DNA of 64,000 bases from Bacteroidota bacterium. GTDB lineage: Bacteria > Bacteroidota > Rhodothermia > Rhodothermales > Bin80. The translations under genes and the position numbers were made by a program. Below, piece by piece: positions 25,551-45,602 of the stretch. The notes below the pieces were generated by a model. That model did not search any database, was not told where the DNA came from, and saw only the letters and a program-made list of their open reading frames with translations. Location: NCBI GenBank assembly GCA_028875125.1, contig JAPPGC010000104.1, positions 24,746 to 88,745 on the forward strand, written 5' to 3'. Within the stretch, counting starts at the first letter, position 1, and the number at the start of each line of letters is the position of its first letter.

Positions 25551-25644
25551 TCAATGGATCGTAGATGGTGTCAATTATATAACCGCCGGGCCGCATCATG
25601 GTCCAGCACGTAATCTGAATCGCACTTACCGGAGCCGCTCACAC

Positions 25645-26484: not shown

Positions 26485-26713
26485 CGGGAATTACAGTTCC
26501 CGATGAGATCCCCAACCCTTGCCTCGTAAAGCGCCGGAGTGGATACAGAATCCTGGTCGTCTATGAATGCGGATTTAACTGCTATGATTGGTAACGCCTG
26601 CGTGTGGCTTGTTCTGTGTGTAACAATGGCAGATACTACTTCGTAGACACGGATAGCCGATTGCAGTGCCACCCCGAAAAAAATCGCAAAATTAACTCTT
26701 CCAAACTTCTTCA

Positions 26714-28090: not shown

Positions 28091-28097
28091 GATTCCC

Positions 28098-29462
28098 ATG
28101 GCAAAGAAAAAAAATCGAACTCGTAATCTTCTAATATTTGTTGCAATTGCAGTGGTCCTTCTGGTGGCTCTGGGTTTTGTTGGGCAGCGTATCTTCGGTG
28201 GTCCCAGTGCAGAGCGCGTGGAGATTGTCACAGCGGAATTACGGACGGTCACACAAACGGTGACCGCGTCTGGACGTGTGCAGCCGGAGGTGGAAATCGT
28301 GATTAGCCCCGATGTCTCGGGCGAAGTTGTGCAGTTACCTGTCGTTGAAGGTCAGCAGGTTCGCAGGGGAGAGCTGCTGGCGCGTATCAAGCCGGATTAT
28401 TACGAGGCTCAGGTAGAGCAGGCGGAAGCACAGCTTTCGCAGGCCAAGGCGAACCTGTCTCAGCGCGAAGCAAACCTCCTGCTGCAGGAGCAGATACTTG
28501 ACCGGCAGCGACAGCTTTACGAAGCACAGGTCATTCCTCTTGATGAATACGAGCAAAGCGAAACCCAGTACAAAATCGCCAAGACAGATCTGGACGCGGC
28601 AACGTTTAATGTAGAGAGTTCTGAGGCTCGTTTGCGGGAAGTTGAGGAACAACTCAGCAAGACCGCACTCTACGCACCGATGTCTGGAACGGTGAGCCAA
28701 TTGGATATTGAGTTGGGTGAGCGGGTGACGGGTAATGAGCTCCAAGCGGGCACTACGGTTATGAAGGTGGCACGTTTGGACCAGATGGAGTTGGAAGTGG
28801 AGGTCAGTGAGAACGATGTGGTCAATGTTGCGCTTGGTGACACCGCCTCCATTGAAGTGGATGCCTACCCTGAGCGCTTTTTTAAAGGGATCGTTACGGA
28901 GATCGCAAATTCGGCTCGACTGCAAGGAAGTACATTTCAGGAGCAGGTGACGAATTTTCCAGTCAAAATCCGAATCCTGGATCCGCATAATCCAGCTTCG
29001 CAGGCTCCCGGCGTTCTTAACGAGACACCTGCGGTTCAGGACTATCCGAGCTTCAGGCCCGGTATGAGTGGGACCGTCGATATCTTTACAAACACGGTCA
29101 CCGAGGTCGTTGCTGTTCCAATTCAGGCCGTGACCGTAAGGGATTTTAAAACAATTAATAGGGCTCGTGCCCGGCGAGCCGCCAGTTCGGGATCAGACTC
29201 GACGGCGGCAGACAACAGTGAAGTAAGATCGGCCTCTTCCTCGGATGAAGAAGATCTGCAGCGGATGGTATTTGTAGTGAATGACGAGATGAAGGCGGTC
29301 GCAACGGCAGTCGAAACAGGAATTTCTGACGATCAGTTTATTGAAATCAAGTCAGGTCTGGAAGAGGGACAGCGGGTGGTGAATGGTCCATACAGTGCCG
29401 TAAGCCGTGAACTCGGCGATGGAGACCTGGTCGAGGAGCGTGGATTCCGAGGTAGCAGATGA
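28098..29462 (+). CDS. Efflux periplasmic adaptor (HlyD/MacA family)
   Basis: ATG 28098 ([22 protein letters not shown] membrane anchor), a lipoyl-like G.V.....V.EG..V..G..LA.I motif, a long coiled-coil hairpin and beta-barrel domains. Confidence 0.85.
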
Positions 29463-30205
29463 ATAACGGAACAAGCGGTCATCCGCTGATTCAGCTGCGC
29501 GATGTAAGGAAGCTTTATCCCATGGGCACGGAGATTGTCCGCGCATTGGATGGAGTAAGCTTGGATGTGTACCCGAATGAGTACGTAGCGGTCATGGGTC
29601 CCAGTGGATCCGGCAAGTCCACGCTCATGAACATGATCGGTTGCCTGGATACCCCTACGGATGGGAGTTATCTCCTTCGAGGGCAGAATGTAGGTGAGAT
29701 GGTTGATCACGAATTGGCAGAAATTCGCAATCGTGAGGTCGGTTTCGTTTTTCAAACCTTCAATTTATTGCCGCGCGTCAACTGTCTACAGAACGTAGAG
29801 CTTCCGCTTATATACAGCGGCAAGACGCGTGGTCAGCGCCGCCAAATGGCTGCACGTGCATTGGAGCAGGTTGGATTATCGGACCGGGTGACGCATAAAC
29901 CCAACGAACTGTCCGGTGGACAGCGCCAACGGGTTGCAGTTGCACGCGCCTTGGTAAATAATCCTGCATTGGTTCTAGCCGATGAACCCACCGGAAACCT
30001 TGATACCAAGACGGGTCGAGAGATTATGTCTCTTTTCGAGACACTTTACCGCAGGGGCAACACGATCATGGTGGTAACGCATGAAGAAGAGGTTGCCCAT
30101 CATGCACGCCGCATTGTTCGCTTGCTGGATGGTCTGGTAGAGAGCGACGTTCGTGTTGAAAACCCCTTACTGGCGAATCAGGATATCTCTGCTGTACCGG
30201 GTTAA
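29459..30205 (+). CDS. ABC transporter ATP-binding protein (MacB/LolD/FtsE-type ATPase only)
   Basis: Walker [11 protein letters not shown]-loop, signature [15 protein letters not shown], Walker [14 protein letters not shown]-loop VTHE. Its start overlaps the adaptor stop (ATGA). At 248 aa it has no permease domain. Confidence 0.9.
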
Positions 30206-30301
30206 GAGAAGGCATGCCGGCCAGTAGGCTATGGGCAGTTGCCGGCGATCGGGCTGGCAGTAGTTTTCGTTCAGGTTGGATCGACTCCGGCACCGTGGTT
30301 G

Positions 30302-30787
30302 TTAGTTTGGTTCACAGTCCAGTGCTTCCTCAATTTGCACAAACCTGACTGGATTCTGGGTTCTTCTGATCCGAACGGCTTCAAAAGCAACCCCGGTGGA
30401 AAAAGATGGGCGACAATCGGGGCCCGGGGAGAACAGCCGATAGGTTGCAACCACAGTATCCCTAAGACTTTCAACGAGCTCAAAACGAAGGTCATATCCT
30501 CCCGCATTAACGTCAACAGCGGCAAGGAGGACCATTTCTGTTTCAAAGTCTGGTGATGTGAAGGGCATCAGCGGCTGAAGTGAATCCGCATATGCAATCC
30601 ATGTGTTCACATCTGAGATCACACGTACGGTGGTTGTGTCGAGGGAAGCCTGTAGTCCGCGGCCCAGTGACACATAGGGGAGGAGTTCGGCAAGGTCTTC
30701 TTCTGTCAGCTCAGGTGGTGGCGTGGTCTCACAGCTTGCAGAAAGCAGCAACGTGGAGATCAATATTATGGAACTATACTTTTGCAT
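30302..30787 (-). CDS. Hypothetical lipoprotein (possibly PrcB_C-like)
   Basis: Lipobox LLSASC|ETT. The AGGYDLRF...VVATYRL pattern is reminiscent of the PrcB C-terminal domain. The assignment is weak. Confidence 0.4.
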   Translation of the reverse strand: MQKYSSIILISTLLLSASCETTPPPELTEEDLAELLPYVSLGRGLQASLDTTTVRVISDVNTWIAYADSLQPLMPFTSPDFETEMVLLAAVDVNAGGYDLRFELVESLRDTVVATYRLFSPGPDCRPSFSTGVAFEAVRIRRTQNPVRFVQIEEALDCEPN

Positions 30788-30832
30788 TAGCGTGTCAGCG
30801 GTTCGTAACGCGTTCGTGTATATAAACTACTC

Positions 30833-31135
30833 ATGCCGCTTAAAACAGTTGATGTCGATGCGCTGGTTGAACAAACAGGTAACCTGTTTGAAGCCGTTGC
30901 GATCCTTTCGAAACGTTCGCGCCAAGCCGCGATTAAAATGAAGTCTGAACTTGATACGCGTCTCGCGTACTTTGAAGGTTTCGATCCCGAACTGGAGGAT
31001 CCGCATTTTCAGGAGGAACAGCGCCGTATATCTATTGAGCACGAGGAGCGACCCAAGCCCACGGAGGTCGCGGTCGAGGAAATGTTCAATTCCGAAATAT
31101 ACTTCCGGGATCCCACCACGGAGCCGGAAATCTAG
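30833..31135 (+). CDS. rpoZ: DNA-directed RNA polymerase omega subunit (Bacteroidota type)
   Basis: [17 protein letters not shown]..., then the acidic ...YFEGFD...EEQ... region, then ...[11 protein letters not shown]...IYFR. This follows the pattern of the ~100-aa flavobacterial RpoZ (TGNIYEAISIMAKRANQ...LPKP...A..E...YYR). Confidence 0.75.
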
Positions 31136-31153
31136 GGCGCAGCCCGGCCTGTC

Positions 31154-34027
31154 ATGGAAGGCCAAAATAGAGAACGCCAGGACGAGTACATTCTCGTCCG
31201 AGGTGCGCGTGAGCACAACCTCAGGGATGTGGATGTGGATGTTCCGCGCGATGAGTTGGTTGTCGTAACTGGTCTATCAGGTTCGGGAAAGAGTTCACTC
31301 GCCTTTGATACTGTTTATGCTGAGGGTCAGCGGCGATACCTGGAAAGCCTGAGTGCGTATGCACGACAGTTTGTTGGGATGCCTGAACGTCCTGACGTTG
31401 ATCATATCGAGGGGCTCTCCCCGGTAATTGCAATTGACCAGAAGATCGTCTCCAGGAGTTCACGGTCAACGGTTGGTACGGTTACCGAGATATACGATTT
31501 TCTGCGACTGCTCTATGCACGGGCAGCGACCTCCTTCTCAGCGGCATCGGGCAAACCGCTTATCAGGCAGTCTACGGGCGAGATAATTGCAGCGATCCAG
31601 GAGTACCCTGTGAATGCAGAAATTGTGCTGCTCGCACCGGTAGTTCAAGGGCGCAAAGGACATTACGGCGAACTCTTCGAGAGGGTGTCTCGCCAGGGCT
31701 ATACCAGAGTTCGCGTTAATGGCAAGATCCGTGTGATCAAGCCCGGTATGAAGGTTGCCAGGTACAGAACGCATAACATCGAAGTTGTTGTTGATCGTTT
31801 GCGTATTGAGGAAGGAATGGAGGCCCGCATTGCTCAATCGGTCAAGACCGCACTGGGGTTGGGCAAAGGAGTCTTGATTCTGGCAGAAGCGTCCGAAAAG
31901 GATCGCATCTTCAGTCGTCACCTATATGATCCAGAAACAGGAGAGTCCTATCAGGAGGCCTCGCCGAGGACTTTTTCTTTCAACTCGCCATTCAGTGCCT
32001 GCAAGGTATGTCGGGGCCTCGGCATACAAGATTGCTGGGATGAAGATTTGCTTGTGCCGGACCGCTCACTCAGTATCAAGAACGATGCGATAGAACTCAT
32101 TGACTCGTGGAGGGACCAGTACTTTATCGAGGAGATAAAGTCGGTTTTGAATAAAGGAGGATTTTCGTTAGCCACACCCGTAAAGAAGATTAGTGAGTCT
32201 GTTTGGGATGAAGTACTCAATGGTTCCTACCAAAACCATGAGATCAAGATGGATGGAACCAAGTATATCTTCAAGTCCCCAGATGGACGAGGCCTTTACA
32301 GATTCTTGGACACGCGGTACAAATTTGCGGACAAGAGAGAAAGAAGAGAACTTGACTGTTTCAGGGTAAGTCGGCCATGTACTGAATGTAAGGGGGGCCG
32401 TCTTTCCAGCGAGGCGCTTTCGTACAGAATTTCCGGAAAGACGATTGCTGATCTGACACAGATGGATCTGATTAGTCTGCGCGAGTTCTTGAATACAGTT
32501 CGTTTTGGCAAACGACAGGCCCAGATTGCCGCACCCATTATTAAGGAGGTTCAGGAACGCCTGATGTTCATGATTGATGTTGGGGTTGGTTATCTAACCT
32601 TGGATCGACCGGCTGCCACATTATCCGGCGGAGAAAGCCAGCGTATTCGCCTGGCCACACAGATTGGTACACAGTTAACAGGAGTCTTATATGTTTTGGA
32701 TGAGCCCTCTATTGGGTTACATACTCGGGATAACCGGCGTCTGATAGCATCCCTGCGCAGGTTACGCGATCTAGGTAACTCAATCCTGGTCGTTGAGCAT
32801 GATCGTGATATGATAGAGTCAGCGGATCATATCATTGACATAGGGCCCGGTGCAGGCGACCAAGGTGGGGAGGTTGTATATGCTGGCTCTCCTGCAATGT
32901 TACGGCAAAATGGCAGTTCCAATAAGGGATTAACCCTGCCTTATCTCTTGGGACAGCGTCGCATAGAAATTCCAGAAAAGCGTAGGGAATTGCAAAAGAA
33001 AGCCATTGTGCTTTCTGGTGCTACGGGCAACAACTTGAAGAACGTTACGCTTACCCTACCCCTGGGGACATTCATTTGTGTGACCGGTGTCAGTGGATCG
33101 GGAAAGAGTTCGCTTATTAATCAAACGCTTGTTCCTGCACTTACGTACAGGATGAACCCGCGTACACGGGTACGAGGATTGCCGTATGAGAAACTGGATG
33201 GGTATTCGTTAATTGATAAGTTGATCAACATTGATCAAAAGCCGATTGGGCGAACGCCTCGGTCTAATCCGGCCACCTACATCAACTTGTTCACGGAAAT
33301 CCGGCAGTTGTTTGCCAATTTACCCCTGTCTAAAGCACGGGGCTATAAGCCGGGACGTTTTTCGTTCAATGTGCGAGGTGGGAGATGCGAGACCTGTTCC
33401 GGGGCGGGTATCGATCGCCTGGAGATGAATTTTTTGCCTGATGTATATGTAGAGTGCGAGACCTGTCAGGGGAGGCGTTACAATCAGGAAACATTGGAGG
33501 TGTCCTATAAGGGCAAAACCATTTCGGATGTTCTGAACATGCGTGTAACTGAGGCGGCGGCCTTTTTTGCCAATCTGCCCAAAATTGCCAAGAAGCTAGA
33601 CACGCTGCTCTCGGTTGGTCTGGGGTACGTACGCTTAGGGCAGCAGTCAACTACGATTTCTGGTGGAGAGGCGCAGCGCGTGAAGCTGGCCAAAGAGCTT
33701 TCACGTTCGGCAATAGGGCGGACACTGTATCTATTTGATGAGCCAACGACGGGGCTGCATTTTGAGGATATCCGGTTATTTCTGAATGTTTTGCAGAAGC
33801 TGGTGGACAGAGGCAATACGGTGCTGGTGATAGAACACAACCCGGATGTTATAAAAGTTGCTGATTATATAGTGGATATGGGCCCGGAGGGAGGTGAGGC
33901 AGGTGGAGAGATTCTTTTTGCAGGTCCTCCAGAGGAGATGAGTCGTCAAAACACCTATACAGCAGACTTGCTCAGGGAAATACTTTCGGGTATGCAAGGC
34001 AAGCAGGTTTCTGGTGATGTCGTGTAG
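31154..34027 (+). CDS. uvrA: Excinuclease ABC subunit A
   Basis: Two ABC modules ([14 protein letters not shown]; [12 protein letters not shown]; [12 protein letters not shown]; [12 protein letters not shown]; LDEPSIGLH; FDEPTTGLH), zinc-finger cysteines ([24 protein letters not shown]...CETCQGRRY), 957 aa. Confidence 0.97.
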
Positions 34028-34189
34028 TCATACGACTGCCAATTAGGTCACTTTGCGTTGAGTCAAATGGAGGTGCTTTAGACGCAGAAGTTCCCTATTA
34101 ACCGCTATGCCTCTGGACACAATATCCTGGGAATTCAGGCTTGCTGCTAAAAGCCGGAGTCCTTGTAGGCTGGGTATGGATTGAGATCA

Positions 34190-36298
34190 TCAGTCATGCG
34201 CAGGCTCCCCGTTACCCATTTGTTTTTCGAATGCTTGGCGCACCAGCCCCATCACGTAGGGCAACTGGTCTTGGTCGCTAATGTCTATTTCGACATCACC
34301 ATTTCCCCACTTACCGAGGCCGGTGATGTCCCGCGCGGTCTTCCTCGGGTCGTAGAGTTCATGAAAATGGAGGTTTAGGATCAAGCATAGGCGGCGCATC
34401 TGCGGAACCACATCAACAAAGTTGGTCTCTGCCTTGTAGGCAATATAAACCTTGAGGATCTCCTCGCTTACGCAAGGATCAAGGGCCAAGATCTCTTTGC
34501 GCAATACGTCGAAGAGCGGACGCATGGCACTGTTCTCGGAAACGTGCTGATGGTTAGCCAAGGAATAGCTGGTTGGCAGCTTGTCCTTCGGGAGATAAGT
34601 CTCCAATACGTTTGCGGTTAGCGCAGGTCGTGCCCACACCTTCACCGCCCGACATGCAAGTCGCTTTGCGCGTGTACGGATAGCATCCTCGTCCCAAGTC
34701 TCAAGAGAACCCAAGTGCTCGTTCAGCTTGAGCGGGCTATTCTTGAAGCCACCCTTCATGGTACGTTTCTCAGCGAAAGGCTTGTCACTGTACTCCGCGT
34801 TGTAGCCGGTAAGTGTAAGATTGCCAAGGGTGTGCAGCCACCTTTCCTGCACATCACGCCAGTTTGAGCCAAGAGCCTTTTGCCACTCTTTAGAGAGATT
34901 CGGGTTCTGAGGAAGAATATGCTCAATGGTTAACTCGTCCATGAGCACGCGTTCCTTGCTGTCATGGTTTTCTAAACGGCGGAGATAATAGCTGCTCCGG
35001 GAAAAATTGTAGAGGTCGCGGGTCCTGAACTCGCGCTTGAATTCCTTATCGTTCGGGAATCGTCGGTAGGACTGCATGCTCAGAAAATGCGCTTGAATGC
35101 TCTCCAGATAGCGATCCTTCTCGAGAGCCTGTGCGAACGTGGAGAACGTCTTGTTCAGTGAATTGGTGGGAATGGCGCAAACGACCCGTCGAAATACGTA
35201 CGCCTCTACCATACGCGCGGCCTGGACAAAATCGTCCTTATTGAGGCAATCCTTGGCGTAGTCGCGGTAAAGCTCAAGGAGAAATGGAAAAGCTACATCG
35301 ACCCTGAGTTCACGCAGATCGCGAAAGGCCTGCGCCAGTTCCTTATCCGGCTCTTGATCAAGTGCCATATTGCAGTAGTAACGGGCGAACGCATGAATCT
35401 TTTTTACCAAACCTTCCACACCAGCCTCCGCGATTCTTTGTGATTTGGAGTAACCTTTGAAGGCTTCATAGACGGCCTTGATCTTGGGGATCTCTCCAGT
35501 TTGTAATGTCAGGTAGTGCCGCATGAAGCCGTCAAATTGCTTGCCATACGCTTCCTGTCCGAAAGCGACTTCCATCGGACGCCAATGCTGTTCGTACAGC
35601 CGATCCTGTTGGTGCGACTCCAGTCCCATGAGAATGAAGTTGCGGATCAAGTCGGCTTGACTCAGCTCACGACCGGTGGAGTTCATGCTCTCGAATATGA
35701 GCTGTGGGTCGTCCCGGTCACGGTCAAGCGCAACGTCGATGATCATGAGCTTATTGAGTCCAAGACACAGCGGAGCGAGATCAAAACCGAGAGCATTTAC
35801 TTGCTCCTGAAAGAAGGCGAAATTCCGCGCAATGTGCAGTGAAGATTCAGTTGGCTGAGGTTCCTGTTCCAAAAGCGCGATCAAGCTCTGCTTATCCGTC
35901 TGCGTGAGCAGGAGCTTGTAATGGAGCTCGCCCGTTTCTAGATGGTTTAGCAGGTAGTAGTGACGGAGTTTTAGTGCAGAGAAGCGATCTACCGTCTCAG
36001 TACTGCCCAGCCGCCGCGCTAGCGCTTCGAGAATGAGCATCACTGTGGTTAGACGTTGCTGGCCGTCAATCACCAAGAGCGGCGGCGGGTCGGTGACTAT
36101 ATAGGGACTCTTCCCGATATAGACAATGGGACCGAAGAAGTGTGCGCGGATGGCGTCGTTACGACCCGCGCGCAGGACATCATCCCAGAGTTGGCGGCAT
36201 TCACGTTCCGTCCAACTGTACGTACGCTGGTAGATCGGAATGACAAACTGCGGTGAACTCTTCAGGAAGTCAAGGAACTTGGCTGCATTCGCCTGCAT
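34190..36298 (-). CDS. GmrSD-type DUF262/DUF1524 protein (putative type IV modification-dependent restriction enzyme) with an extra C-terminal domain
   Basis: N-terminal DUF262 (FVIPIYQRTYSW, LVIDGQQRLTT). The DUF1524 His-Me finger is TIEHILPQNP...LHTLGNLTLTGYN. A further ~150-aa C-terminal module (LFDVLRKEILALD...YIAYKAETNFVDV...) resembles the DUF5655-type domain often fused to these enzymes. Confidence 0.85.
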   Translation of the reverse strand: MQANAAKFLDFLKSSPQFVIPIYQRTYSWTERECRQLWDDVLRAGRNDAIRAHFFGPIVYIGKSPYIVTDPPPLLVIDGQQRLTTVMLILEALARRLGSTETVDRFSALKLRHYYLLNHLETGELHYKLLLTQTDKQSLIALLEQEPQPTESSLHIARNFAFFQEQVNALGFDLAPLCLGLNKLMIIDVALDRDRDDPQLIFESMNSTGRELSQADLIRNFILMGLESHQQDRLYEQHWRPMEVAFGQEAYGKQFDGFMRHYLTLQTGEIPKIKAVYEAFKGYSKSQRIAEAGVEGLVKKIHAFARYYCNMALDQEPDKELAQAFRDLRELRVDVAFPFLLELYRDYAKDCLNKDDFVQAARMVEAYVFRRVVCAIPTNSLNKTFSTFAQALEKDRYLESIQAHFLSMQSYRRFPNDKEFKREFRTRDLYNFSRSSYYLRRLENHDSKERVLMDELTIEHILPQNPNLSKEWQKALGSNWRDVQERWLHTLGNLTLTGYNAEYSDKPFAEKRTMKGGFKNSPLKLNEHLGSLETWDEDAIRTRAKRLACRAVKVWARPALTANVLETYLPKDKLPTSYSLANHQHVSENSAMRPLFDVLRKEILALDPCVSEEILKVYIAYKAETNFVDVVPQMRRLCLILNLHFHELYDPRKTARDITGLGKWGNGDVEIDISDQDQLPYVMGLVRQAFEKQMGNGEPAHD

Positions 36299-36439
36299 GG
36301 ATGATTTCCTTTGATGATATGATTCAGTATTCCCTCAGTTTTATTCTCCAATGTCAGTATATCGGCTCAAATCTCCTCCAGTGCTCGCAAAGGTTTCGGC
36401 CTGTAGAATAAGCATTTGAAGCTGATCATGTAGCTGGCC

Positions 36440-36873
36440 TCAAAAGTCTTGGCCCACACCAAGCATCGCGGGCATGACAATGCCGTCAATGATCGCTTTC
36501 CTATCACGGCTTTCCGCTGCCTTTAGTGAGGAATTCATCGGCGGTGCATTTAGGATGCTAGCCCTGTTCTGTGGGCATAAAGTCGATTTACCAGTGGCTT
36601 TCACGGTGCCTAGTTTCGCGCCCTGAGAAAATACATGTTTTTGTCGAATTGGGGACGTCATGTCGGTGGTTATGCACGTCTGAAGTGTAATTCGCATATT
36701 CCGACAAAGTGGCTCACTAATTCCGAGTGAAGTGAACCACCAATACGATCGAACTGGGCCATCAAAACGATCGAAGTGAGCCACTGGATGTGTGAAGGAT
36801 TGCGGAAGCACCCTATGAGTTCTTTTCTCTTAGTATCCACGCTGAAGTTAGGGAGGTTTCCAAGCTGGCCCAC
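36440..36873 (-). mobile_element. Decayed fragment of an ISAzo13-family (Rhodopirellula-type DDE) transposase
   Basis: ORF 36670..36873 contains FSVDTKRKELIGCFRN, close to the family signature SVDTKKKELVGNFKN. The downstream frame changes (ORF 36440..36811). There is no N-terminal part, no DDE core and no IS ends. Confidence 0.35.
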
Positions 36874-37145
36874 GTCCGAAGAACAGGAATCTGCGTGAAC
36901 TGCTGGTCTCGTTCAGGATGCTGGGATCCAGGCAACGTTTTGAGTCTGTTGAAAAACGGCATTCAATTTTGGAGGAGAATATTTCAAACGTCGAGAGATT
37001 CTGGATTCAACTGACTCCGCTTTATTCAAACGAATCGTTTCTCAACATTCTCTTGCACGAAATGAATATGTCGCATCATTTAATTGGACCCTGCACATTT
37101 GTTAATTATTCTCGTACATTCGCTTGGGGTTAACTATTATAACTC

Positions 37146-39980
37146 ATGGTTCCCAGAGTTAATCATTTAATTGTTTCCCTCTTTTGCATAGGTTCCAGTT
37201 TTTGTCTTTTTTCCGAGCCAGTTCTTGGCCAGTCTGCGACTGTGGTTGGGAAGGTTACCGATTCGGAAACCGGTAAATCATTGATTGGGGCGAACGTGCA
37301 GGTTGCTGGGACCTCGATTGGAAGTGCCACTGATATTGAGGGTAATTTTGAAATTTCGAACCTTCACGCTGGAATCCATATCCTGCGAGCAAGTTTTATA
37401 GGGTATTCAGCTCAGGAATTGACGGTTACTCTGGCTGAGGGAGAGAATTATGTCTGGAACGTTGCCTTAGACCCAGGAACAGATCTAGACCCCGTACAGG
37501 TGACCGCAGGACGCCGGAATGAGAAAACGTTGAATGCACCCTCTTCCATTGATGTCATTACTTCGCGAGATCTTCAATTGGATGTCGCACAGACAACGGC
37601 AAAATCGCTCCGAAATGTGACCGGGTTGGATTTGGTTCAGACCGGCGTGGATCGCTACGAAATCGTGCTTCGCGGATTCAATGACGCTTTCTCAAGATCT
37701 ACACACGTGCTCACCGATTACAGGAAGGCAGCGGTTGCCTCCATTGGTGTCAACCTGCATAATGTTATGCCAAGTCTGGCCATCGATACGGAACGGATTG
37801 AAGTAGTTCGGGGGCCGGGATCCGCACTTTATGGACCTGGTGTGGATTCAGGAGTGATCCACTACATCTCAAAAGATGCATTCAATTACCCGGGAGCTAC
37901 GATCTCTGTTTCAGGTGGCCAAAGGTCTATGCTCAATGTTCAGGGACGCATGGCTACGGTTCTAGGCACAAATCTCGGTGTCAAAGTGATTGGCAATTAC
38001 GCAACATCGGAGGATTTTACTCTTGAAGGGTGTGACGCTGCACTCCTCAAGAGTGAAAGGTTTAGTGAATGCCCTGATCCCGAAGACGCAGTTCAGTTGT
38101 TTGTCGATGGGGTTCGCGAAACCAAAAACCGCAAGCTTGTGCTGTCCAGTACTATGGACTTGCGCATGGGCAAATCAACCACTCTTTCGTTGAGTGGGGG
38201 GATTGGAAATCTGGATGGTGCAATGCTCAGCAGCTTGGGCACAATTCAGGCAAAGGGAATGGTTGCCAGCTATGCACAGATTCGGCTGTCCAGCGGCCCT
38301 CTCTTCGTGCAGGCGTATATGAATTCAATCAATTCGGGGAACTCCTATATCTATGGTGGAGATCCCGTTCAAGAATACTCCGAAGAATTTTCCGTGCAAG
38401 GCCAGTATACGCAAGAGATTGGGTCTAGACAGCAGCTGATTGCAGGAGTGGACCTACGATTTGATCGTCCTGATACCAGAGCAATTGTTATCGAACGCAT
38501 CGATGGGATTGCAGGGCTTGACGAATATGGTGCATACCTGCAATCGACGACACAGATCTCAAATAGACTCAAACTGACACTCGCCCTTCGGGGAGACTAC
38601 AACAATATCGTCCCCGATCTTCAATTATCTCCACGCGTCGCACTCGTGTTAAAACCAACTCCTTCCTCAGGTCTGCGTGCAACGTTTAACCGTAGTCTCT
38701 CTTCACCGCTGTCGACCGATTACCTGTTGGATTTAGTGGTAGCTTCCCTTGGGCCGCTCACAGTGCGGGCCCGCGGTGGTGCAACCGGATTTACCTTTGA
38801 CAGAAATCCCAACTACCTTGAACTTGGTGCACCTACGTCTCTTGTTGCTTCCAGTATGCTCCCAGGAATGGAGGGATATCCAACTCCCGTTGGAATAGAT
38901 ACAGGGTTCCTCTATGGGTTGATTTACGATGGTCTGACAAAAATCCCAGATGATGAACTTGCACGAATACTTGCCGATGCAGGACTAGATATTCCCCCTC
39001 AGCTTCTGCCCCTCCTGAAGCAGGGGTTGAACCCAGAAGTGACTCCAGTTCAGGGATTCAGTCCTGGGATCCTTAGTCTCGTGAACCTGAGTACGCTCGA
39101 GCTCAAATTCAACCCGGAGTTGAATAACCTTCAGGATACCGGACCAATCAAGCCAACTATTACTCAATCTTGGGAATTTGGATATAAAGGAATTATTCGT
39201 GATCATATTGTCTTCGCAGTGGACGGGTACTACAGTAGAAGAAAAAATTTTACAGGTCCACTTCAGATTAAAACACCATTTGTTCTGGTTCCAAATCTGA
39301 AACAGGATCTCATTCAAGACATCTCAGCTGGACTGGCAGCAAATTCGGACGTTGCGAATGCACTGGAGTTATTTGGGGTGACCCCTCAGTTGGCTGCAGA
39401 AATGCTCGTCGATATTGCGGGCAGTGATCTGCCTGATAGTGAAACCCCAGTGGCAATTGTACAGACAAACGAGAACAACAAGGGAGCGGGAAATTTTCCT
39501 GAACTGATGCTGACCTTTCCTAACTTTGGGGATATCCGGTATTTTGGAATGGATGTTTCAGCTCAGATCATCGCCAGTGAAAAACTGATGGTTTTTGGAA
39601 ATGCATCCTGGGTAAGTGACGATTATTTTGATCATACGGAGATCAACGAGGAGTCAGAGGATCTGGAATTGGCCCTCAATGCGCCGGGATTCAAGTTTAA
39701 GATCGGCGGTCAATACCAACCAAAGAACGGCTTTTCGTTCATGGCATCGGGACGGTTTACAAAGGGATTTCCTGTTATTTCTGGTCAATATGTGGGGAAT
39801 GTGCAGAGCTATACGGTGGTTGATGTAGGCATAGGATATGCGATTCATAAAGCCGGATTCCGTGCTGATCTGGGAATCAACAATCTGTTCAACAGTAACC
39901 ACCGCGAATTTGTCGGTGCCCCCAGACTCGGTAGAATTGCAATTATCAGGCTCACGTATACCACGGATCGCAGCGGTTAG
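37146..39980 (+). CDS. TonB-dependent receptor with N-terminal carboxypeptidase-regulatory-like domain
   Basis: Signal peptide, a CarbopepD_reg-like block (VVGKVTDSETGKSLIGANVQVAG...TDIEGNFEI...G.H.L..SFIGY), a plug domain (IERIEVVRGPGSALYGPG) and a long beta-barrel. Confidence 0.85.
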   Translation: MVPRVNHLIVSLFCIGSSFCLFSEPVLGQSATVVGKVTDSETGKSLIGANVQVAGTSIGSATDIEGNFEISNLHAGIHILRASFIGYSAQELTVTLAEGENYVWNVALDPGTDLDPVQVTAGRRNEKTLNAPSSIDVITSRDLQLDVAQTTAKSLRNVTGLDLVQTGVDRYEIVLRGFNDAFSRSTHVLTDYRKAAVASIGVNLHNVMPSLAIDTERIEVVRGPGSALYGPGVDSGVIHYISKDAFNYPGATISVSGGQRSMLNVQGRMATVLGTNLGVKVIGNYATSEDFTLEGCDAALLKSERFSECPDPEDAVQLFVDGVRETKNRKLVLSSTMDLRMGKSTTLSLSGGIGNLDGAMLSSLGTIQAKGMVASYAQIRLSSGPLFVQAYMNSINSGNSYIYGGDPVQEYSEEFSVQGQYTQEIGSRQQLIAGVDLRFDRPDTRAIVIERIDGIAGLDEYGAYLQSTTQISNRLKLTLALRGDYNNIVPDLQLSPRVALVLKPTPSSGLRATFNRSLSSPLSTDYLLDLVVASLGPLTVRARGGATGFTFDRNPNYLELGAPTSLVASSMLPGMEGYPTPVGIDTGFLYGLIYDGLTKIPDDELARILADAGLDIPPQLLPLLKQGLNPEVTPVQGFSPGILSLVNLSTLELKFNPELNNLQDTGPIKPTITQSWEFGYKGIIRDHIVFAVDGYYSRRKNFTGPLQIKTPFVLVPNLKQDLIQDISAGLAANSDVANALELFGVTPQLAAEMLVDIAGSDLPDSETPVAIVQTNENNKGAGNFPELMLTFPNFGDIRYFGMDVSAQIIASEKLMVFGNASWVSDDYFDHTEINEESEDLELALNAPGFKFKIGGQYQPKNGFSFMASGRFTKGFPVISGQYVGNVQSYTVVDVGIGYAIHKAGFRADLGINNLFNSNHREFVGAPRLGRIAIIRLTYTTDRSG

Positions 39981-40105
39981 AGGCTACCCGTCCAAATCAT
40001 GGTTTGTATTTCTACATCCGCGCGAAAATAGGGAATCACCCCCTGCACCGATTCAGGTATCAGCGTTCTTTTTCCAGAACGAAAACTTGACAGTCGCAGT
40101 GTCTA

Positions 40106-40383
40106 CCCAGTTGCCAAGCTCTTGCAGGGCCTACAATTTCTTTACCAATGATTGCTACTTAGTGCGCCATTGACCGGATCAGGAGCTGTCTGTTGCAGGT
40201 AAAGTGTGACCAAAACCTGTTCCATGGCACCCACGCAACGATTCAGTTCCTCCAAGGTCGTGAGCAGTTTAGCCGTAACTCGGGAGTATTCAATTTCCGC
40301 GAGTTTAATTGGTGAAGCGATTGCGCTGCGCGGTGCGAATTCCATAGGTGCATGCCTAACTCCGCAGTATCAATGCCGTCATT
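40106..40383 (-). pseudogene. Ghost copy of 41927..42200 (first ~65 nt of lhgO + spacer + last ~200 nt of the class-V aminotransferase)
   Basis: Collinear nucleotide similarity to 41927..42200, for example cccagttgccaagct..., ccaatgattgctac, ctgttgcaggtaaa, acctgttccatggca, ttcagttcctccaaggt, ttagccgtaactcg, tatcaatgcc. The track ORF 40142..40345 translates to ...LTTLEELNRCVGAMEQV versus the parental ...FTTLEELNRFVDAMEQV. Confidence 0.75.
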
Positions 40384-40693
40384 AGGGCGGACAATGCATC
40401 AAATTGATGAGCCGACGACGGGGTTGCATTTTGAGGATATCCGGTTATTTCTGAATGTATTGGAGAAGCTGGCAGACAGGGGCAATTCGGTGCTGGTGAC
40501 AGGACACAATCCAGATGTGATAAAAACTGATGATTACATCGTGGATATGGGTCTAGAGGGAGGCGAGGCAGGTGGGGAGATCCTATTTGCTGGTTCTCCC
40601 TACGAGATGAGTCGTCAAACAGCCAAACCGCAAACTTGCTCAGGGAAATATTTTCGGGGAGGCAAGGTGAGAGGGATTCTAGCGGTCCGGTAA
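40384..40693 (+). pseudogene. Ghost copy of the uvrA 3' end (33715..34027)
   Basis: Collinear with uvrA at a constant offset of 6669 nt, including an identical 34-mer (33756-33789 = 40425-40458). It encodes [41 protein letters not shown]..., with a 1-nt indel near the end that changes the C-terminal frame. No upstream uvrA body exists. Confidence 0.85.
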
Positions 40694-40797
40694 TTGAGCC
40701 CGAAACCGCGCTGGATTGCAGAAATTTGGACGCCGCTGACTAATGTTAGGGCGTTGTTAATGTCTGTCTCTGCTTGATCCAGTCTGGTGCTGAACTT

Positions 40798-41991
40798 CTA
40801 ATCGAGCCGTAGTCGGTTCATCAAATTCCTCGCTAGAGTTTCTCCTATGGCAAGTGATGCGGTTGCGCTTGGAGAACTGGCATTTAATACACTCAGCACT
40901 CGTTGACGTTCTTTGATATACATGCTTCGAATCATTTTGCCATCGGCTCTGACTGCCTGTGCGCGCACGCCACTTCGTGCAGGCCTAAGATCAGCTAGTT
41001 TAACTGCGGGAATCAGGCGTTGTAATTCTCGCAAATAATACTTTTTGCTGAGGCTTTGCAGAATTTCTCGTGCAGCAGTTCGCCACAATGAGCGTGCGAG
41101 ATGCCAACTTCCAGGCCAAAGAACTGTATCCAGGATGTCTCCGGGTACAACTGTGAAGCCTGTATATCCCTCCCGGGATAGTGCCAGAACGGCGCTTGGG
41201 CCACAAAGAACGCGGCCGTCTGTCATACGGGTCGCATGTACACCAAGGAAGGGGGCACGTTCATCTCCCGCGGGATAAATGAGATGGCGACAGTACTGTC
41301 GGGATAGGAGTTCGTAATACTCCCCTCTGAACGGTAATACACGAATATTTGGTTCCTGTCCCAGAAGTTTAGCTACACGGTCAGCATACAATCCGGCACA
41401 GTTAAGAACATGCCGCGCATGGACCGTAAGACTGTCGGTCTCCAGAACAATATGTTGACGCTCCTCGTGCGCCCCGTACACGCATGAATTTGTCAATACG
41501 TCTGTGCCTTGTTCCTGTGCTAGCGACATCAGGCGCCGCACGACGCCCGGATAATCCACGATACCAGCATCACGCACCAAAAGGGCTTTACTACCGGCGG
41601 AATACGGCTCACGTTCTCGGAGTGCGTCTCGGTCTATGATTTGGCATTGCACACCATTTGCACGTCCCCATTCGTAAAACGTGTATAGGCGAGCCAATTC
41701 CCGGGGGGTGCTGCCTATGATCACCTTGCCGCAGAGCTCGAATGGCAGGTCGTTGGTACGGCAGAATTCTTCCATTAACCGTCGCCCGCGCAGACACGTC
41801 TGTGCCTGTTTTGACCTTGGCTTATAGTAGATTCCTGAGTGCAGCACACCCGAATTACGGCCTGACTGATGTGTTGCGACGGAACTTTCCTTCTCGAGAA
41901 CCAAGACTCGACAATCATAGCGCCGGCCCAGTTGCCAAGCTGTTGCAAGGCCGACAATTCCTCCCCCAATGATTGCTACGTCACACTCCAC
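40798..41991 (-). CDS. lhgO: L-2-hydroxyglutarate oxidase (FAD-dependent)
   Basis: DVAIIGGGIVGLATA dinucleotide fold, LEKE...HQSGRNSGVLHSGIYYKP, PFRGEYYEL, FLGVHATRMTDG, GVRAQAV..DG and LNASSPSATASLAIG are collinear with E. coli LhgO (YgaF). GTG start. Confidence 0.85.
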   Translation of the reverse strand: MECDVAIIGGGIVGLATAWQLGRRYDCRVLVLEKESSVATHQSGRNSGVLHSGIYYKPRSKQAQTCLRGRRLMEEFCRTNDLPFELCGKVIIGSTPRELARLYTFYEWGRANGVQCQIIDRDALREREPYSAGSKALLVRDAGIVDYPGVVRRLMSLAQEQGTDVLTNSCVYGAHEERQHIVLETDSLTVHARHVLNCAGLYADRVAKLLGQEPNIRVLPFRGEYYELLSRQYCRHLIYPAGDERAPFLGVHATRMTDGRVLCGPSAVLALSREGYTGFTVVPGDILDTVLWPGSWHLARSLWRTAAREILQSLSKKYYLRELQRLIPAVKLADLRPARSGVRAQAVRADGKMIRSMYIKERQRVLSVLNASSPSATASLAIGETLARNLMNRLRLD

Positions 41992-41999
41992 AAGTAGGA

Positions 42000-43301
42000 C
42001 TAGGAGCTCTCTGTTGCAGGTAAACCGTGACGCACAACCTGTTCCATGGCATCTACAAAACGGTTCAGTTCCTCCAAGGTTGTGAATAGGTTAGCCGTAA
42101 CTCGCAGGCCTTCAAATTCCGCGTGTTTAATTGGTGTAGCGATTATGCGGTGCGCATCCCATAGGTGTGTGCCCACCTCCGCCGTATCAATGCCCTCAAT
42201 CTGGACCGTGCCGATACAACAGGAAAATTCGGGCTTGAGGCTGGTGTGCAGACGAACGCGGTCGTGCTGCATGAGCGGTTTTGCCCAGTAGTCACGCAGG
42301 TACCGCAGACGATCCTCCTTGCGTTTGGCTCCAATACCCTGATGGAAGGTAAGCGCTTCGGCAATAGCTATGTAGTTGGCCGCAGGGTGCGTACCAATTT
42401 CTTCGTACTTGCGAATATCTTCATCCATGCCCTCGGGAGCTGCCATAAGCGGCCATAATTCCTTGATTTTATCCTTGCGCACGTGCAGCAGCCCCGTGCC
42501 ATGTGGTGCCAATAGCCACTTGTGCAGGCTGGAAGCGTAGTAGTCGCAATCCAGATCTTCATGCTTAAAATCGAAATGCCCAAACGCGTGTGCACCGTCC
42601 ACGATAACCGGGATACCCTTGCGTCGATCCATTTGGACTACCGGCTTCACTGGCAGGATTTGACCGGTAATATTGATCATGTGGCACATGAGTATGGCAC
42701 GGGTGCGGGGGCCAATGTTTTCCTCAAAGAGGCGTACGATCTCTCCCGGATCTTCGGAGGGTATGGGTATGGAAAACTGTTTAAGGACAATTCCTTCACG
42801 GCGTTCTCGTTGCTTGAACGTAGTGATCATACGTCCATAGTCCTGCGTGGTAGTTAACACTTCATCACCAGGCTCAAATTCCAGTCCCAATTGGCATATC
42901 TGAAGACCTTTACTTGCATTGCGGGTCAGTGCGATCTCCTCGGAATCACAGCCAAACTCCAACGCCAAGCGTTGTCGGACTCCCTCGCGCTGAGGTTCCA
43001 AGATGCGCCACATGGTGTACACTGGTGCTTCATTGGAGTAGTCCAGATGTCCTTTCATAGCCTCTTGGACAATCCTTGGAGAAGGGCTCACGCCGCCGCT
43101 GTTGAGGTTGATTAGACTGCGGTCAACCGTGAAGGCCTGTTGCACCTCACGCCAAAAAGTCTCATCTCGCGTTACATCGCCAGTTACACCCGCTATGTGT
43201 TCAAGTACAGCCGGAACTCGCGCAGGAACCAGTGAACTGTATGTGAGGGCCGCGGCTGCGGGGGCCCCAATCTGGTAAAGAAACTGCCTGCGGTTTGACA
43301 T
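42000..43301 (-). CDS. Class-V-fold PLP-dependent aminotransferase/epimerase-like enzyme with twin-arginine signal
   Basis: ATG 43301 gives MSNRRQFLYQIGAPAAAALTYSSL, a Tat motif (S-R-R-x-F-L). The PLP lysine context is YYASSLHKWLLAPHGTG, and DGAHAFGH is also present. Confidence 0.8.
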   Translation of the reverse strand: MSNRRQFLYQIGAPAAAALTYSSLVPARVPAVLEHIAGVTGDVTRDETFWREVQQAFTVDRSLINLNSGGVSPSPRIVQEAMKGHLDYSNEAPVYTMWRILEPQREGVRQRLALEFGCDSEEIALTRNASKGLQICQLGLEFEPGDEVLTTTQDYGRMITTFKQRERREGIVLKQFSIPIPSEDPGEIVRLFEENIGPRTRAILMCHMINITGQILPVKPVVQMDRRKGIPVIVDGAHAFGHFDFKHEDLDCDYYASSLHKWLLAPHGTGLLHVRKDKIKELWPLMAAPEGMDEDIRKYEEIGTHPAANYIAIAEALTFHQGIGAKRKEDRLRYLRDYWAKPLMQHDRVRLHTSLKPEFSCCIGTVQIEGIDTAEVGTHLWDAHRIIATPIKHAEFEGLRVTANLFTTLEELNRFVDAMEQVVRHGLPATESS

Positions 43302-43369
43302 GACTAAACCCTTCTTTAATTGATCAGTAAACAAATTAAGACATTTCATACACTGATATAGAGATTATT

Positions 43370-44419
43370 GTGCGACCCGAGGTACGCATGTTTTGTTGGG
43401 TTCTAGTCTGTTTACTGATTGCCGGCTGCGACGCGGGCGACCGGCAAAATGACACGGTCTCCGTGATCAGATCCGTGACACTTGACGCTCGGAATGAGCC
43501 GTCCGCGGCAATGCTGCCCAAGCTGAAAGAATCCGGGCTCACACATATAACGCTGGTGCAGTTTGGTTTTCAGCGGGATGTTGACATTCCTGAGATCCGC
43601 ATGAATCCCGACGCAAGATGGTACAGTGAAAGTGATCAAGCGGCGCGGGAATTGTCTCAAAAAGCTGACAGCCTCGGAATGGGGATTATCCTAAAGCCGC
43701 ATCTTTGGCTTGGTCGTTACAGTTCTGAAGGTCAGTCGAGAAGCTCAATAGGCTATTCGGAGGAACACGATTGGCAGACTTGGGAGACGCAGTACACTAA
43801 GCTGCTCATGCATTACGCACACCTCGCCGAAGAGATTAATGCGGCAATGCTGGTAATTGGTACTGAACTTGCAAAAAGTGCTCATGAACGCCCGGATTAT
43901 TGGCGCGGACTCATAAGGGATATACGTTCTGCGTACCGGGGCAATCTGACTTATGCGGCCAACTGGTGGGAGGAATACGAGGAAATTGAGTTTTGGGATG
44001 TGCTTGATTATATAGGTGTGCAGGCATATTTCGAACTTTCCGATGAACCCAACCCAACCAACGGGATGCTGGCAGAGGGCTGGGAGCCTCATATTGAGGC
44101 GCTTGCGGGTCTCTCAAAGCGTATAAATCGCCCCATTCTTTTTACTGAAATTGGCTACCGGAATGTCCCTGATGCGGCCGCCAAGCCATGGCGATGGCCC
44201 TCGCGTGGAGAAGCGGATTTGGTGGAGCCGGATGATGATTTACAGGCCCGCCTGTATGAAGTGTTTTTTGACGAGTTGTGGGACAAACCGTGGTTCAGTG
44301 GTGCCATTCTCTGGAAATGGTACGGCGATCGTGACCGGCCTCGCACCTATCTGGATTTCACTCCACAAGGAAAGCCGGCCGAAGAAGTTATCCGTTCCCG
44401 GTTCACAGCCAGCCTGTAG
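43370..44419 (+). CDS. Putative glycoside hydrolase lipoprotein (TIM-barrel, clan GH-A-like)
   Basis: Lipobox LIAGC|DAG. VIGTELAKS and LFTEIGYRN are spaced as the acid/base and nucleophile glutamates of a (beta/alpha)8 glycosidase. The family is not resolved. Confidence 0.45.
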   Translation: MRPEVRMFCWVLVCLLIAGCDAGDRQNDTVSVIRSVTLDARNEPSAAMLPKLKESGLTHITLVQFGFQRDVDIPEIRMNPDARWYSESDQAARELSQKADSLGMGIILKPHLWLGRYSSEGQSRSSIGYSEEHDWQTWETQYTKLLMHYAHLAEEINAAMLVIGTELAKSAHERPDYWRGLIRDIRSAYRGNLTYAANWWEEYEEIEFWDVLDYIGVQAYFELSDEPNPTNGMLAEGWEPHIEALAGLSKRINRPILFTEIGYRNVPDAAAKPWRWPSRGEADLVEPDDDLQARLYEVFFDELWDKPWFSGAILWKWYGDRDRPRTYLDFTPQGKPAEEVIRSRFTASL

Positions 44420-44423
44420 GTAC

Positions 44424-45602
44424 ATGCGAACGCTCTGTTTGCTGCTCGTGGTTTTTTTGCTGGGCTGCGATTCGTCAGGCATGGAACCCGAACCCACTCC
44501 GGTAAGGGGAGATGTTATTGACGTGACCACTCTTGCAACCTACACAGCTGAGGAGGTATCACAACTGGTTGGCGCATATGGGATACCTTATTCAGCGAGG
44601 TATGGTATTTCATTTTATGTCATAGAGTACCTGACCGTGGATACGCATGAAGAGGAAACGACGGCTTCGGGTGCAGTAGCCGTTCCGCAACCTGTTTTAC
44701 GGTCGCTTCCGATGGTTTCGTTTCAGCACGGGACGGTAACGCGGCGTTCGGGTGCGCCTTCTAGAGGTGACACGAATGAAGCTGTGGTGGGCATGTTTTT
44801 TGCCGCAGACGGGTATTTATCAGTAATGCCTGACCTGCTTGGGTTGGGGCGTTCGCCGGGGCTGCATCCCTATTTGATAGCTGATGTATCTGCTTCGGCA
44901 ATAGTCGATATGATGCAGGCTGTGGTTCGCTGGTCCGCCACCCAGCCATGGAGCTACTCGGGCGAGGTTTACATGGCAGGATACTCGGCAGGCGGTTACA
45001 CGGGCATGGCAGCACATCGCCTTTTGGAGGCTGAGTATTCAAGCGAATTTACCATTAAAGCGTCTTCCCTGATGGCAGGACCTTACGGTTTGAGTGGAAC
45101 CATGTTGGACCTCATGCTGCGTGAAGAACCATATCCCCAACCGTATTATTTCCCCTACGTGCTATTCAGCTATAACGAGGCTTATGGTTTGTATGACAGT
45201 CCGTCTGATTTTCTTGCAAGCCCTTACGATGTTACGTTACCTCCATTATTTGACGGAATGCATGGCGGCGGTGACATTAATGAGGCTATGCCAACTATCC
45301 CGATTCAAATTGTACATCCAGATGTTCGCCGGTCCTTTCTGTCTGACCTCAACCACCCATTCCGTCAGCGTCTGCGTGAGAATGATCTGACCAACTGGAC
45401 ACCGCGGGCACCAACACGGTTATATCATTGCGCGGCTGACGAACTCGTACCCATTGAAAATTCTATAATTGCCGCACAGTCGCTTGGCGAGGCCGCTACA
45501 TTGTTGGATCCCAGCCCGCAAAGTGAGCATGGTGACTGTGCTCCCCTCGCAATTGCAAGCACACGAGCGTGGTTCAATTCGGTATCTACATCGGGACAGT
45601 AA
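44424..45602 (+). CDS. Alpha/beta-hydrolase lipoprotein (secretory-lipase-like)
   Basis: ATG 44424 gives MRTLCLLLVVFLLGC|DSS (lipobox). The nucleophile elbow is GYSAGGY. The track's 5' extension overlapping the previous gene was rejected. Confidence 0.5.
   Translation: MRTLCLLLVVFLLGCDSSGMEPEPTPVRGDVIDVTTLATYTAEEVSQLVGAYGIPYSARYGISFYVIEYLTVDTHEEETTASGAVAVPQPVLRSLPMVSFQHGTVTRRSGAPSRGDTNEAVVGMFFAADGYLSVMPDLLGLGRSPGLHPYLIADVSASAIVDMMQAVVRWSATQPWSYSGEVYMAGYSAGGYTGMAAHRLLEAEYSSEFTIKASSLMAGPYGLSGTMLDLMLREEPYPQPYYFPYVLFSYNEAYGLYDSPSDFLASPYDVTLPPLFDGMHGGGDINEAMPTIPIQIVHPDVRRSFLSDLNHPFRQRLRENDLTNWTPRAPTRLYHCAADELVPIENSIIAAQSLGEAATLLDPSPQSEHGDCAPLAIASTRAWFNSVSTSGQ

Follow-up and report, generated by a model that had tools for sequence, protein, structure and literature searches.

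The window analysed here is a stretch of 64,000 nucleotides (nt) from a Bacteroidota bacterium (contig JAPPGC010000104.1), and our subject is the interval between two of its genes, uvrA and lhgO, in which accessory genes are followed by two gene fragments lying back to back. One fragment, a', is a degraded copy of the 3' end of uvrA (a), and the other, b', is a degraded copy of the junction between lhgO and the adjacent aminotransferase gene (b). We compared the window with related metagenomic loci, labelled L083 to L098, and consider that these ghosts probably mark the joint of an old tandem duplication of about 1.82 kb, in which copy 1 is the uvrA-proximal and copy 2 the distal copy. The parts of the locus are the following (aa, amino acids; IS, insertion sequence):

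31154-34027, plus strand: uvrA, 957 aa, intact (Pfam UvrA_inter 1.7e-31, UvrA_DNA-bind 4.5e-15)
33708-34018, plus strand: a, the functional uvrA 3' end and start of the duplicated unit (copy 1), defined by its BLASTN match to a'
34019-36786: GmrSD segment, a later, lineage-variable insert, replacing L083 12866-13227
34190-36298, minus strand: putative type IV restriction-like defence gene of the GmrSD family (DUF262 + DUF1524 + DUF5655), 702 aa (Pfam GmrSD_N 6.6e-35, GmrSD_C 2.7e-25, DUF5655 1.7e-12)
36786-37069, minus strand: frameshifted transposase remnant of the ISAzo13 family (DDE_Tnp_ISAZ013), located by tblastn with the 167-aa fragment of L083
37146-39980, plus strand: TonB-dependent receptor gene, 944 aa, with a CarboxypepD_reg N-terminal domain, inside the copy-1 lhgO (Pfam Plug 2e-12, TonB_dep_Rec_b-barrel 1.9e-21, CarbopepD_reg_2 2.5e-19)
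40066-40170, minus strand: b' part 1, by alignment a remnant of the first 35 codons of the copy-1 lhgO, with a stop at codon 4
40176-40381, minus strand: b' part 2, by alignment a remnant of the last ~66 codons of the aminotransferase gene, cut at the duplication joint
40376-40386: the b'/a' joint, reading GTCATTAGGG in the window
40382-40693, plus strand: a', the frameshifted uvrA 3'-end ghost and start of copy 2, defined by alignment to a
40694-40797: copy-2 spacer, the ancestral uvrA-lhgO intergenic sequence, aligning after uvrA of L083, L085, L091, L096 and L084
40798-41991, minus strand: lhgO, a DAO-family gene resembling L-2-hydroxyglutarate oxidase, intact copy 2 (Pfam DAO 1.6e-61)
41887-42198: b, the functional counterpart of b' (BLASTN)
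42000-43349, minus strand: class-V aminotransferase gene, intact (Pfam Aminotran_5 4.7e-35)

When positions 39900-40900 were compared with the whole window by BLASTN, exactly two non-self matches were returned, and an independent repeat search gave the same pairs. The a' fragment (40377-40680) matches the uvrA 3' end (33708-34012) at 83.6% over 305 nt with one gap (E 6e-90), and b' (40066-40381) matches b (41887-42198) at 77.6% over 317 nt (E 1e-67). Both matches are significant, so the ghost copies of the uvrA 3' end and of the lhgO/aminotransferase junction, which a first-pass annotation of this DNA had paired by eye for a self-BLASTN to confirm, are real. Its pairs stand, with altered limits: b' starts at 40066 rather than 40106, the cargo occupies 34019-40065, and the a/a' homology stops at 34012-34018 in the window instead of running to 34027. 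The remainder of uvrA (34019-34027, the final three sense codons and the stop) is new sequence supplied by the GmrSD segment, and a' 40681-40693 together with the spacer behind it has its homologous counterpart in the relatives, in the tail of their uvrA and the spacer that follows. The functional a comprises the final ~105 codons of uvrA and is 92.6-94.5% identical to a of L083, L085, L089 and L091; b takes in lhgO codons 1-35, a gap of 8 nt and then the final 66 aminotransferase codons.

Neither ghost can be functional as a gene, as the first-pass annotation had also held. The frame of a' is broken by a 1-nt deletion near 40617, and conserved UvrA motifs are damaged in it (LYLFDEP to MHQIDEP, VIEHN to VTGHN, GPEGG to GLEGG), while in b' two indels, a deletion of 1 nt and an insertion of 5 nt, come on top of the stop at lhgO codon 4. 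An open reading frame (ORF) of 113 aa is open in the window at 40352-40693; it does not merit annotation as a gene, and 40066-40693 should carry a pseudogene-fragment annotation. An identical 34-mer at 33756-33789 and 40425-40458, noticed in the first pass, is exact and is the longest run common to a and a'. We rejected it as a crossover mark or attachment (att) core: a run of this length would arise about once in ten tries (a rough estimate that assumes independent sites, ~84% identity and ~270 start positions) and therefore needs no special explanation, and a' of the other lineages does not conserve it.

The end of the duplicated unit abuts its start, with b' and a' both in direct orientation relative to their parents. 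The offset from b' to b is 1817-1822 nt, and the distance from the start of a' (40382) to the end of b (42198) is 1817 nt, which is the unit length; the unit begins 320 nt ahead of the uvrA stop codon and ends within the aminotransferase gene, of which it takes in the last 199 nt (42000-42198). At the joint, four of the five other lineages that retain it read GTCAATAGGG and L083 reads GACAATAGGG, and all six share ...ATGCCGTCAAT/AGGGCGG..., where the slash marks the point of joining. The parental sequences are ...ATGCCCTCAAT/CTGG in b and ...TTCGGCAAT/AGGGCGG in a, that is, ...CTCAAT/CTGG and ...GGCAAT/AGGG. The 4-nt microhomology CAAT is thus present in both parents and is kept at the joint in five of the six lineages, the window having CATT. 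The same joint across six lineages points to one old event.

The structure is shared by a clade of metagenomic lineages with nucleotide identities to the window of 90-94% in uvrA, 87-95% in lhgO and 93-97% in the receptor gene. Throughout this clade the order is uvrA, a variable slot, the ISAzo13 transposase remnant, the TonB-dependent receptor gene, b', a', spacer, lhgO and the aminotransferase gene. In L083, L085, L091 and L096, which have no GmrSD gene, uvrA is directly followed by a diverged spacer and lhgO 3' end that are colinear with copy 2. Copy 1 of L083 (12555-13021) aligns with its copy 2 (16812-17271) at 81% over 468 nt, L085 and L091 are arranged in the same way, and in L096 the copy-1 remnant at 3134-3360 aligns with 9844-10068. 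Of the copy-1 lhgO 3' end ~41 nt is kept in L083 and ~68 nt in L096 (41-191 nt over the relatives, L084 included); this colinear interior is seen in the relatives and has been deleted by the GmrSD segment in the window. Copy 1 would formerly have consisted of a, spacer, lhgO and b', with copy 2 being a', spacer, lhgO and b. A tandem duplication from the uvrA 3' end through lhgO to the aminotransferase 3' end, whose first lhgO was later overwritten, had been one of two origins proposed in the first pass, and it fits the copy-1 remnants, the offset and the CAAT joint. As a separate observation, divergence between the window (31154-43349) and L083, L085, L089 and L091 differs strongly between neighbouring genes, in the manner of a recombination mosaic.

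A search of species-representative genomes with lhgO gave a best match of 51% aa, hence no close genome for synteny, and among the matches listed from metagenome contigs the best was 53%, all of them distant homologues. The first-pass annotation had expected close relatives to show an empty state with uvrA and lhgO directly convergent; instead, all close relatives carry the structure, and in L084 lhgO is truncated. L084 (uvrA 87% aa) is the sole lineage in which uvrA leads directly into spacer and lhgO 3' end, followed by unrelated sequence and the contig end; its lhgO is cut after the last 191 nt (62 codons), and the 77 nt past the break match neither the window nor any fetched locus. In the outgroup L095 (uvrA 68% aa, lhgO 57% aa) a peptidase S9 gene and a 103-aa ORF lie between uvrA and lhgO. 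The peptidase gene falls within L095:11350-13801, and the window clade has one a few genes further on or back, flanked by DUF819 and GSDH; if the two are orthologous, the same uvrA-lhgO interval underwent an older rearrangement.

To describe the decay of the ghosts, ancestors were approximated by majority consensus sequences and ghost-only changes were polarised by outgroups. Present-day a and a' differ by 16% and the a' copies of different lineages by 14-20% among themselves, and the ancestral forms of a' and a agree at 94% of positions, with 18 differences in 298 sites. Terminal branches are 6-10% long for a' versus 2-5% for a, ghost indels are lineage-specific (5-12 gapped columns per ~310 nt), and the between-lineage divergence of a' is about that of dS in uvrA (0.19-0.30, the close pair L085/L091 excepted) and lhgO (0.12-0.30). 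The a'-specific changes (n=7) fall at codon positions 1, 1, 1, 2, 2, 3 and 3, those specific to b' (n=19) are distributed 6:8:5 over positions 1, 2 and 3, and changes confined to the functional copy number four in a and zero in b. Since the ghost-specific changes have no third-position excess, there is no trace of the ghosts' ancestors having evolved as functional genes elsewhere. In the window dN/dS is 0.35 for a/a', 0.80 for the aminotransferase part and 0.24 for the lhgO part; the pooled value of ~0.4 is near the 0.5 expected for one drifting and one constrained copy. Judged from these sequence patterns, the ghosts appear to be neutrally decaying relics that would need no "diverged homology arms". 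Such arms, on a circular DNA integrating by single crossover, had been the other origin proposed in the first pass; most of the a/a' difference instead arose after the event, independently in each lineage.

We place a probability of roughly 60% on the following history, in which an old ~1.82 kb tandem duplication explains the ghosts and the IS remnant and receptor gene lie inside the copy-1 lhgO. In the ancestor of a Rhodothermales-like clade, uvrA and lhgO would have been convergent neighbours. Illegitimate joining at the 4-nt CAAT would have duplicated the unit in tandem, apparently within one genome, leaving both boundary genes intact, the b' and a' fragments back to back at the joint and a second lhgO. 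The spare, uvrA-proximal lhgO would then have been destroyed, its middle coming to be occupied by an ISAzo13-family element and the TonB-dependent receptor gene, and its leftovers would be the first 105 nt (in b') and, in the relatives, the last 41-191 nt. With most of the repeat removed the arrangement would have become stable. The ghosts would since have drifted neutrally. Between uvrA and the IS remnant a small variable slot would later have developed, and there, in the lineage of the window, the GmrSD segment would have taken the place of the uvrA tail, the spacer of copy 1 and what was left of its lhgO 3' end.

Several observations weigh against this history. Ancestral b' and b are 85% identical versus 94% for a' and a, which is unexpected for fragments of equal age, and the b' stem (~0.12) is three times that of a' (~0.04). 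The b'/b excess calls for a further assumption, whether subsequent allele replacement in a recombining aminotransferase/lhgO region, early gene conversion between a and a', or a younger receptor-b' block. The b' copies are 86-94% alike among lineages and dS of the receptor gene is 0.07-0.13, so the receptor-b' block coalesces more recently than a'; the aminotransferase gene is identical in L083, L085 and L091 (dS 0), and uvrA of the same lineages has a dS of 0.05-0.23. Recombination mosaicism would be a likely cause of the discrepancy between the stems. Among the lineages we found neither a pure duplication with two lhgO genes nor a clean single-copy site, so the proposed order, with duplication before cargo, is deduced, and the truncated lhgO beside uvrA in L084 could mean that disruption preceded duplication. 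Finally, quartet counts group a' with a of its own clade in preference to L084 or L095 (8:2:0), but a neighbour-joining tree of all a, a' and a'' sequences (a'' being a further uvrA ghost in L089, described below) leaves the split of a' versus L084/L096 unresolved (bootstraps ~50-60), so that only weak quartet counts date the duplication with respect to L084 and L096.

The tandem duplication has one serious competitor, which we regard as a tentative possibility: a near-identical fragment, linear or circularised, could have arrived from a close relative, joining by homologous recombination on one side and by an illegitimate CAAT join on the other. It may have brought a copy already disrupted by the IS element and receptor gene, or an intact lhgO, which mended a locus that the cargo had interrupted beforehand, and the recombining side could have been in uvrA or in the aminotransferase gene, through homology-facilitated illegitimate recombination or a Campbell-type single crossover. 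The final topology would be indistinguishable from that of a tandem duplication. The truncated lhgO of L084 is compatible with such a cargo-first order, the nested 388-nt repeats of L089 with another uvrA 3' ghost suggest a recurrent uvrA-anchored process, and import would also suit both the larger ancestral divergence of b'/b (15% versus 6% for a'/a) and the mosaic genes, with the aminotransferase gene identical in L083, L085 and L091 and uvrA there differing by 1.3-5.9%. On the other hand, nothing indicates that the arms diverged as functional genes, as the ghost substitutions affect all codon positions and hit conserved UvrA motifs, and a' groups with the clade's own uvrA. The donor would necessarily have been near-identical, which makes import hard to separate from duplication within the genome and less parsimonious.

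The nested repeats of L089 also bear on a wider idea that we consider improbable, namely that accessory and defence genes have repeatedly been captured, without an integrase, by recombination anchored in the conserved uvrA 3' end, each capture rebuilding uvrA and displacing the prior 3' end as a ghost. In L089 an unrelated 600-aa DUF262 gene (HEC-05-like by PADLOC; L089:16383-18185) occupies the place of the GmrSD gene and is flanked by a 388-nt direct repeat (L089r 2277-2664 versus 4718-5101, 76.5%) that includes the third uvrA 3' ghost, a''. This ghost has the a' state at 9 of the 13 sites separating ancestral a from a', including the change of VIEHN to VIGHN. If the idea were true, stacked ghosts (a' in all lineages, a'' in L089) would record the assembly of a core defence hotspot without mobile elements, and this nested ghost is the one lead that could raise the significance of the locus.

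We consider it very unlikely that the cargo is a site-specific island with an att site in the uvrA 3' end, which supplied uvrA with a new 3' end and left the displaced original behind as a'. Such an island would account for a cargo flanked by direct repeats of a gene 3' end with a 34-nt identical core. Yet no tyrosine or serine recombinase was found by Pfam in the cargo (34019-40065, window ORFs of at least 60 aa) or in the gene tables of five relatives with their versions of it, and Rfam and tRNA scans returned no family and no tRNA in 33000-43500, in line with the first-pass statement that neither an integrase nor a tRNA target is involved. Homology, moreover, continues past the 34-mer in both directions, for 48 nt on its left and 223 nt on its right, and other lineages' a' does not conserve the 34-mer. 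Furthermore, a' is fused to b' from 1.8 kb away and accompanied by copy-1 spacer and lhgO remnants, neither of which att duplication explains.

Equally hard to credit is that the ghosts were maintained for a function, whether through the 113-aa ORF or as regulatory or terminator elements serving the receptor gene or lhgO: they persist over the whole clade and the ORF is open in the window, but every lineage has its own indels, some of 1 nt and some larger, between-lineage divergence is close to dS, half of b' is deleted in L086 and L089, L096 has b' and most of a' overwritten, and Rfam is empty here. Least plausible of all is an assembly artefact, whether a repeat that was collapsed or chimerically joined, or a free circle of 6.67 kb mis-threaded at the 34-mer. 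Two Logan contigs of SRR10996927 cover window 33760-40454 (a, cargo, b', a') and 40429 onwards (a', lhgO, aminotransferase gene) and break solely at the shared 34-mer, presumably because the k-mer size is ~31, so that the path is ambiguous from that graph alone; however, contigs from other samples and assemblers run unbroken in the same order in L083 and L085 (ERZ25069412), L089 (ERZ23495530) and L091 (ERZ23492022), and the L096 contig (ERZ23495066) also spans the architecture, though only the last ~50 nt of a' are left. These rule out the assembly chimerism that had been raised as a concern, and the alternative path would leave uvrA with a frameshifted, motif-damaged 3' end.

Returning to the duplication, the cargo within it is layered. 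L083 1-12865 corresponds to window 21154-34018 and L083 13228-21505 to window 36787-45074, and in place of the GmrSD segment L083-type loci have the uvrA tail, the copy-1 spacer, the lhgO 3' remnant and an IS remnant of ~210 nt. The IS remnant and receptor gene lie between the 3' and 5' remnants of the copy-1 lhgO, and the receptor gene is 96-97% identical at the nucleotide level in L083, L085, L089 and L091 and 92.7% in L096. This distribution suggests that the IS remnant and receptor gene are old and clade-wide, and that the GmrSD gene, which the window and L098 have and L083, L085, L091 and L096 lack, is a separate, later layer. A single event placing the defence and receptor genes together, as the first-pass annotation supposed, is contradicted by the same distribution, which also corrects the view of the 6 kb as a single mobile unit. 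The receptor gene may have been brought by the IS element, whose remnant in the window matches the L083 fragment at 60% over 80 aa and, in another frame, 68% over 25 aa. The ISAzo13 Pfam family is assigned in L083, L089, L091 and L098, the relatives' fragments being 67-167 aa; the window has no complete DDE transposase (frameshifted, ~95 codons), terminal inverted repeats not having been specifically sought. The element would accordingly be better described as a relic than as an active IS.

The product of 34190-36298 has the features by which GmrSD-family type IV restriction proteins are recognised, with an N-terminal DUF262 domain containing DGQQR (at residue 78) and a predicted C-terminal DUF1524 His-Me finger with an EHILPQN segment, and PADLOC assigns it to Orf5 (E 2.8e-195). 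Homologues at ~70% aa occur in proteins that their sources name as Binatia, Planctomycetes and Anaerolineae, and the exact protein is on record from an NCBI "Bacteroidota bacterium" metagenome-assembled genome (MAG). On plasmids (cyanobacterial, alphaproteobacterial and E. coli) the gene has matches of 64-67% nt only, and the cargo had no match in a phage collection. By these comparisons it is apparently a widely transferred defence gene. Window 33640-36718 has a counterpart of 86% nt identity in L098, where the left joint is again ATGTCGTGTAG, and the two GmrSD proteins are 79% identical in aa.

Some further details of the slot were noted. In L098 an extra 6 kb lies between the GmrSD segment and the IS remnant (L098:1844-6509), carrying a 406-aa ORF, a TonB-dependent receptor-like gene of 794 aa and a DUF4249 gene, and the shared homology stops at a 39-nt near-perfect palindrome (3058-3096 of the reverse complement). 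A 123-aa ORF at window 36440-36811 (minus strand) lies upstream of the GmrSD gene on the same strand, with no Pfam or PADLOC match, and an imperfect direct repeat is found just inside the right edge of the GmrSD segment, at 36740-36786 (ACGATCGAAcTGgGCCA ... ACGATCGAAgTGaGCCA). In L096, ORFs of 503, 76 and 229 aa between the receptor gene and lhgO (L096:11640-14198) replace b' and most of a'; none has a PADLOC match, and the 503-aa ORF has a weak DDE_Tnp_1 match (E 1.3e-4) below the Pfam cutoff. PADLOC and Pfam likewise returned nothing significant for the small slot ORFs (window 36440-36811, L085 126 aa, L089 67 aa, L095 103 aa, L096 76 and 229 aa). Over nine lineages, a small sample, the defence content at this site thus ranges from a GmrSD gene of ~702 aa (window, L098) through the 600-aa DUF262 gene (L089) to none (L083, L085, L091, L096), and the uvrA-lhgO interval seems to behave like a miniature hotspot flanked by core genes and free of mobile-element hallmarks.

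The functional genes bordering the structure differ mainly at their ends. The window UvrA is 94% identical in aa to P0001 (972 aa), and its closest named homologues, at 74% aa, are from Rhodothermaceae and Bacteroidota MAGs; an exact look-up of the window uvrA product found no record, probably because a different start codon was called. Comparing window 34013-34027 with L083 12860-12919 and L084 12860-12877, we found UvrA lengths of 957 aa in the window (new ...DVV*), 958 aa in L084 and 972 aa in L083, L085, L091 and L096, where a 1-nt loss deletes the stop and reading continues into the spacer. The extreme C-terminus of UvrA thus seems dispensable. Homologues of lhgO are named L-2-hydroxyglutarate oxidase by their sources. 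In L083 (17073-18422) the called lhgO has 449 aa instead of 397 aa, its frame crossing the spacer into a' on the opposite strand, which could be a genuine loss of the stop codon or an assembly error.

The event itself is of a known type and belongs to ordinary genome evolution; what distinguishes it is its unusually good preservation. It illustrates how a small tandem duplication can turn a disposable gene copy into a landing pad beside a repair gene, leaving uvrA undamaged, how joint fragments can last as datable fossils over a whole clade, and how such a site can give rise to a small variable slot that has no integrase and whose defence genes change.

Tandem duplication joins formed independently of RecA at microhomologies have been studied in Salmonella and E. 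coli, and laboratory duplications are usually tens to hundreds of kb long and quickly lost by recombination. The locus described here resembles such joins in several respects: a few bases of microhomology connect the unit's end with its start, both boundary genes are intact while truncated copies of them adjoin at the joint, and nothing prevents the loss or overwriting of the redundant gene inside. Unlike the laboratory examples, it is only 1.8 kb long, fixed in a clade, stabilised by the loss of most of copy 1, and old, with ~0.13-0.18 substitutions per site separating the ghosts from their origin. Homology-facilitated illegitimate recombination and Campbell-type integration likewise leave cargo flanked by direct repeats of the anchor gene without an integrase, and share with our locus the microhomology join on one side; they require a donor, which is unneeded here, where the arms have no prior functional divergence. 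Islands at gene 3' ends with att duplication also have a direct repeat of the 3' end on both sides of the accessory genes, whereas our locus has no integrase, its repeat runs straight into an unrelated fragment that derives from 1.8 kb downstream, and parts of the interior of the duplicated unit survive.

In P. aeruginosa, cDHS1 and cDHS2 are core defence hotspots without mobile-element hallmarks and with a median size of 26 kb, whose transfer has been suggested to proceed via recombination in the conserved flanks, leaving no mobile-element scars (PMC10250203). The uvrA-lhgO slot is like them in having variable defence content at a fixed core-gene site with no obvious mobile element. It differs in scale, at 0-9 kb in nine related metagenomic lineages as against a median of 26 kb, and in content, its DUF262-family genes occurring singly among receptor genes and the remains of an IS.

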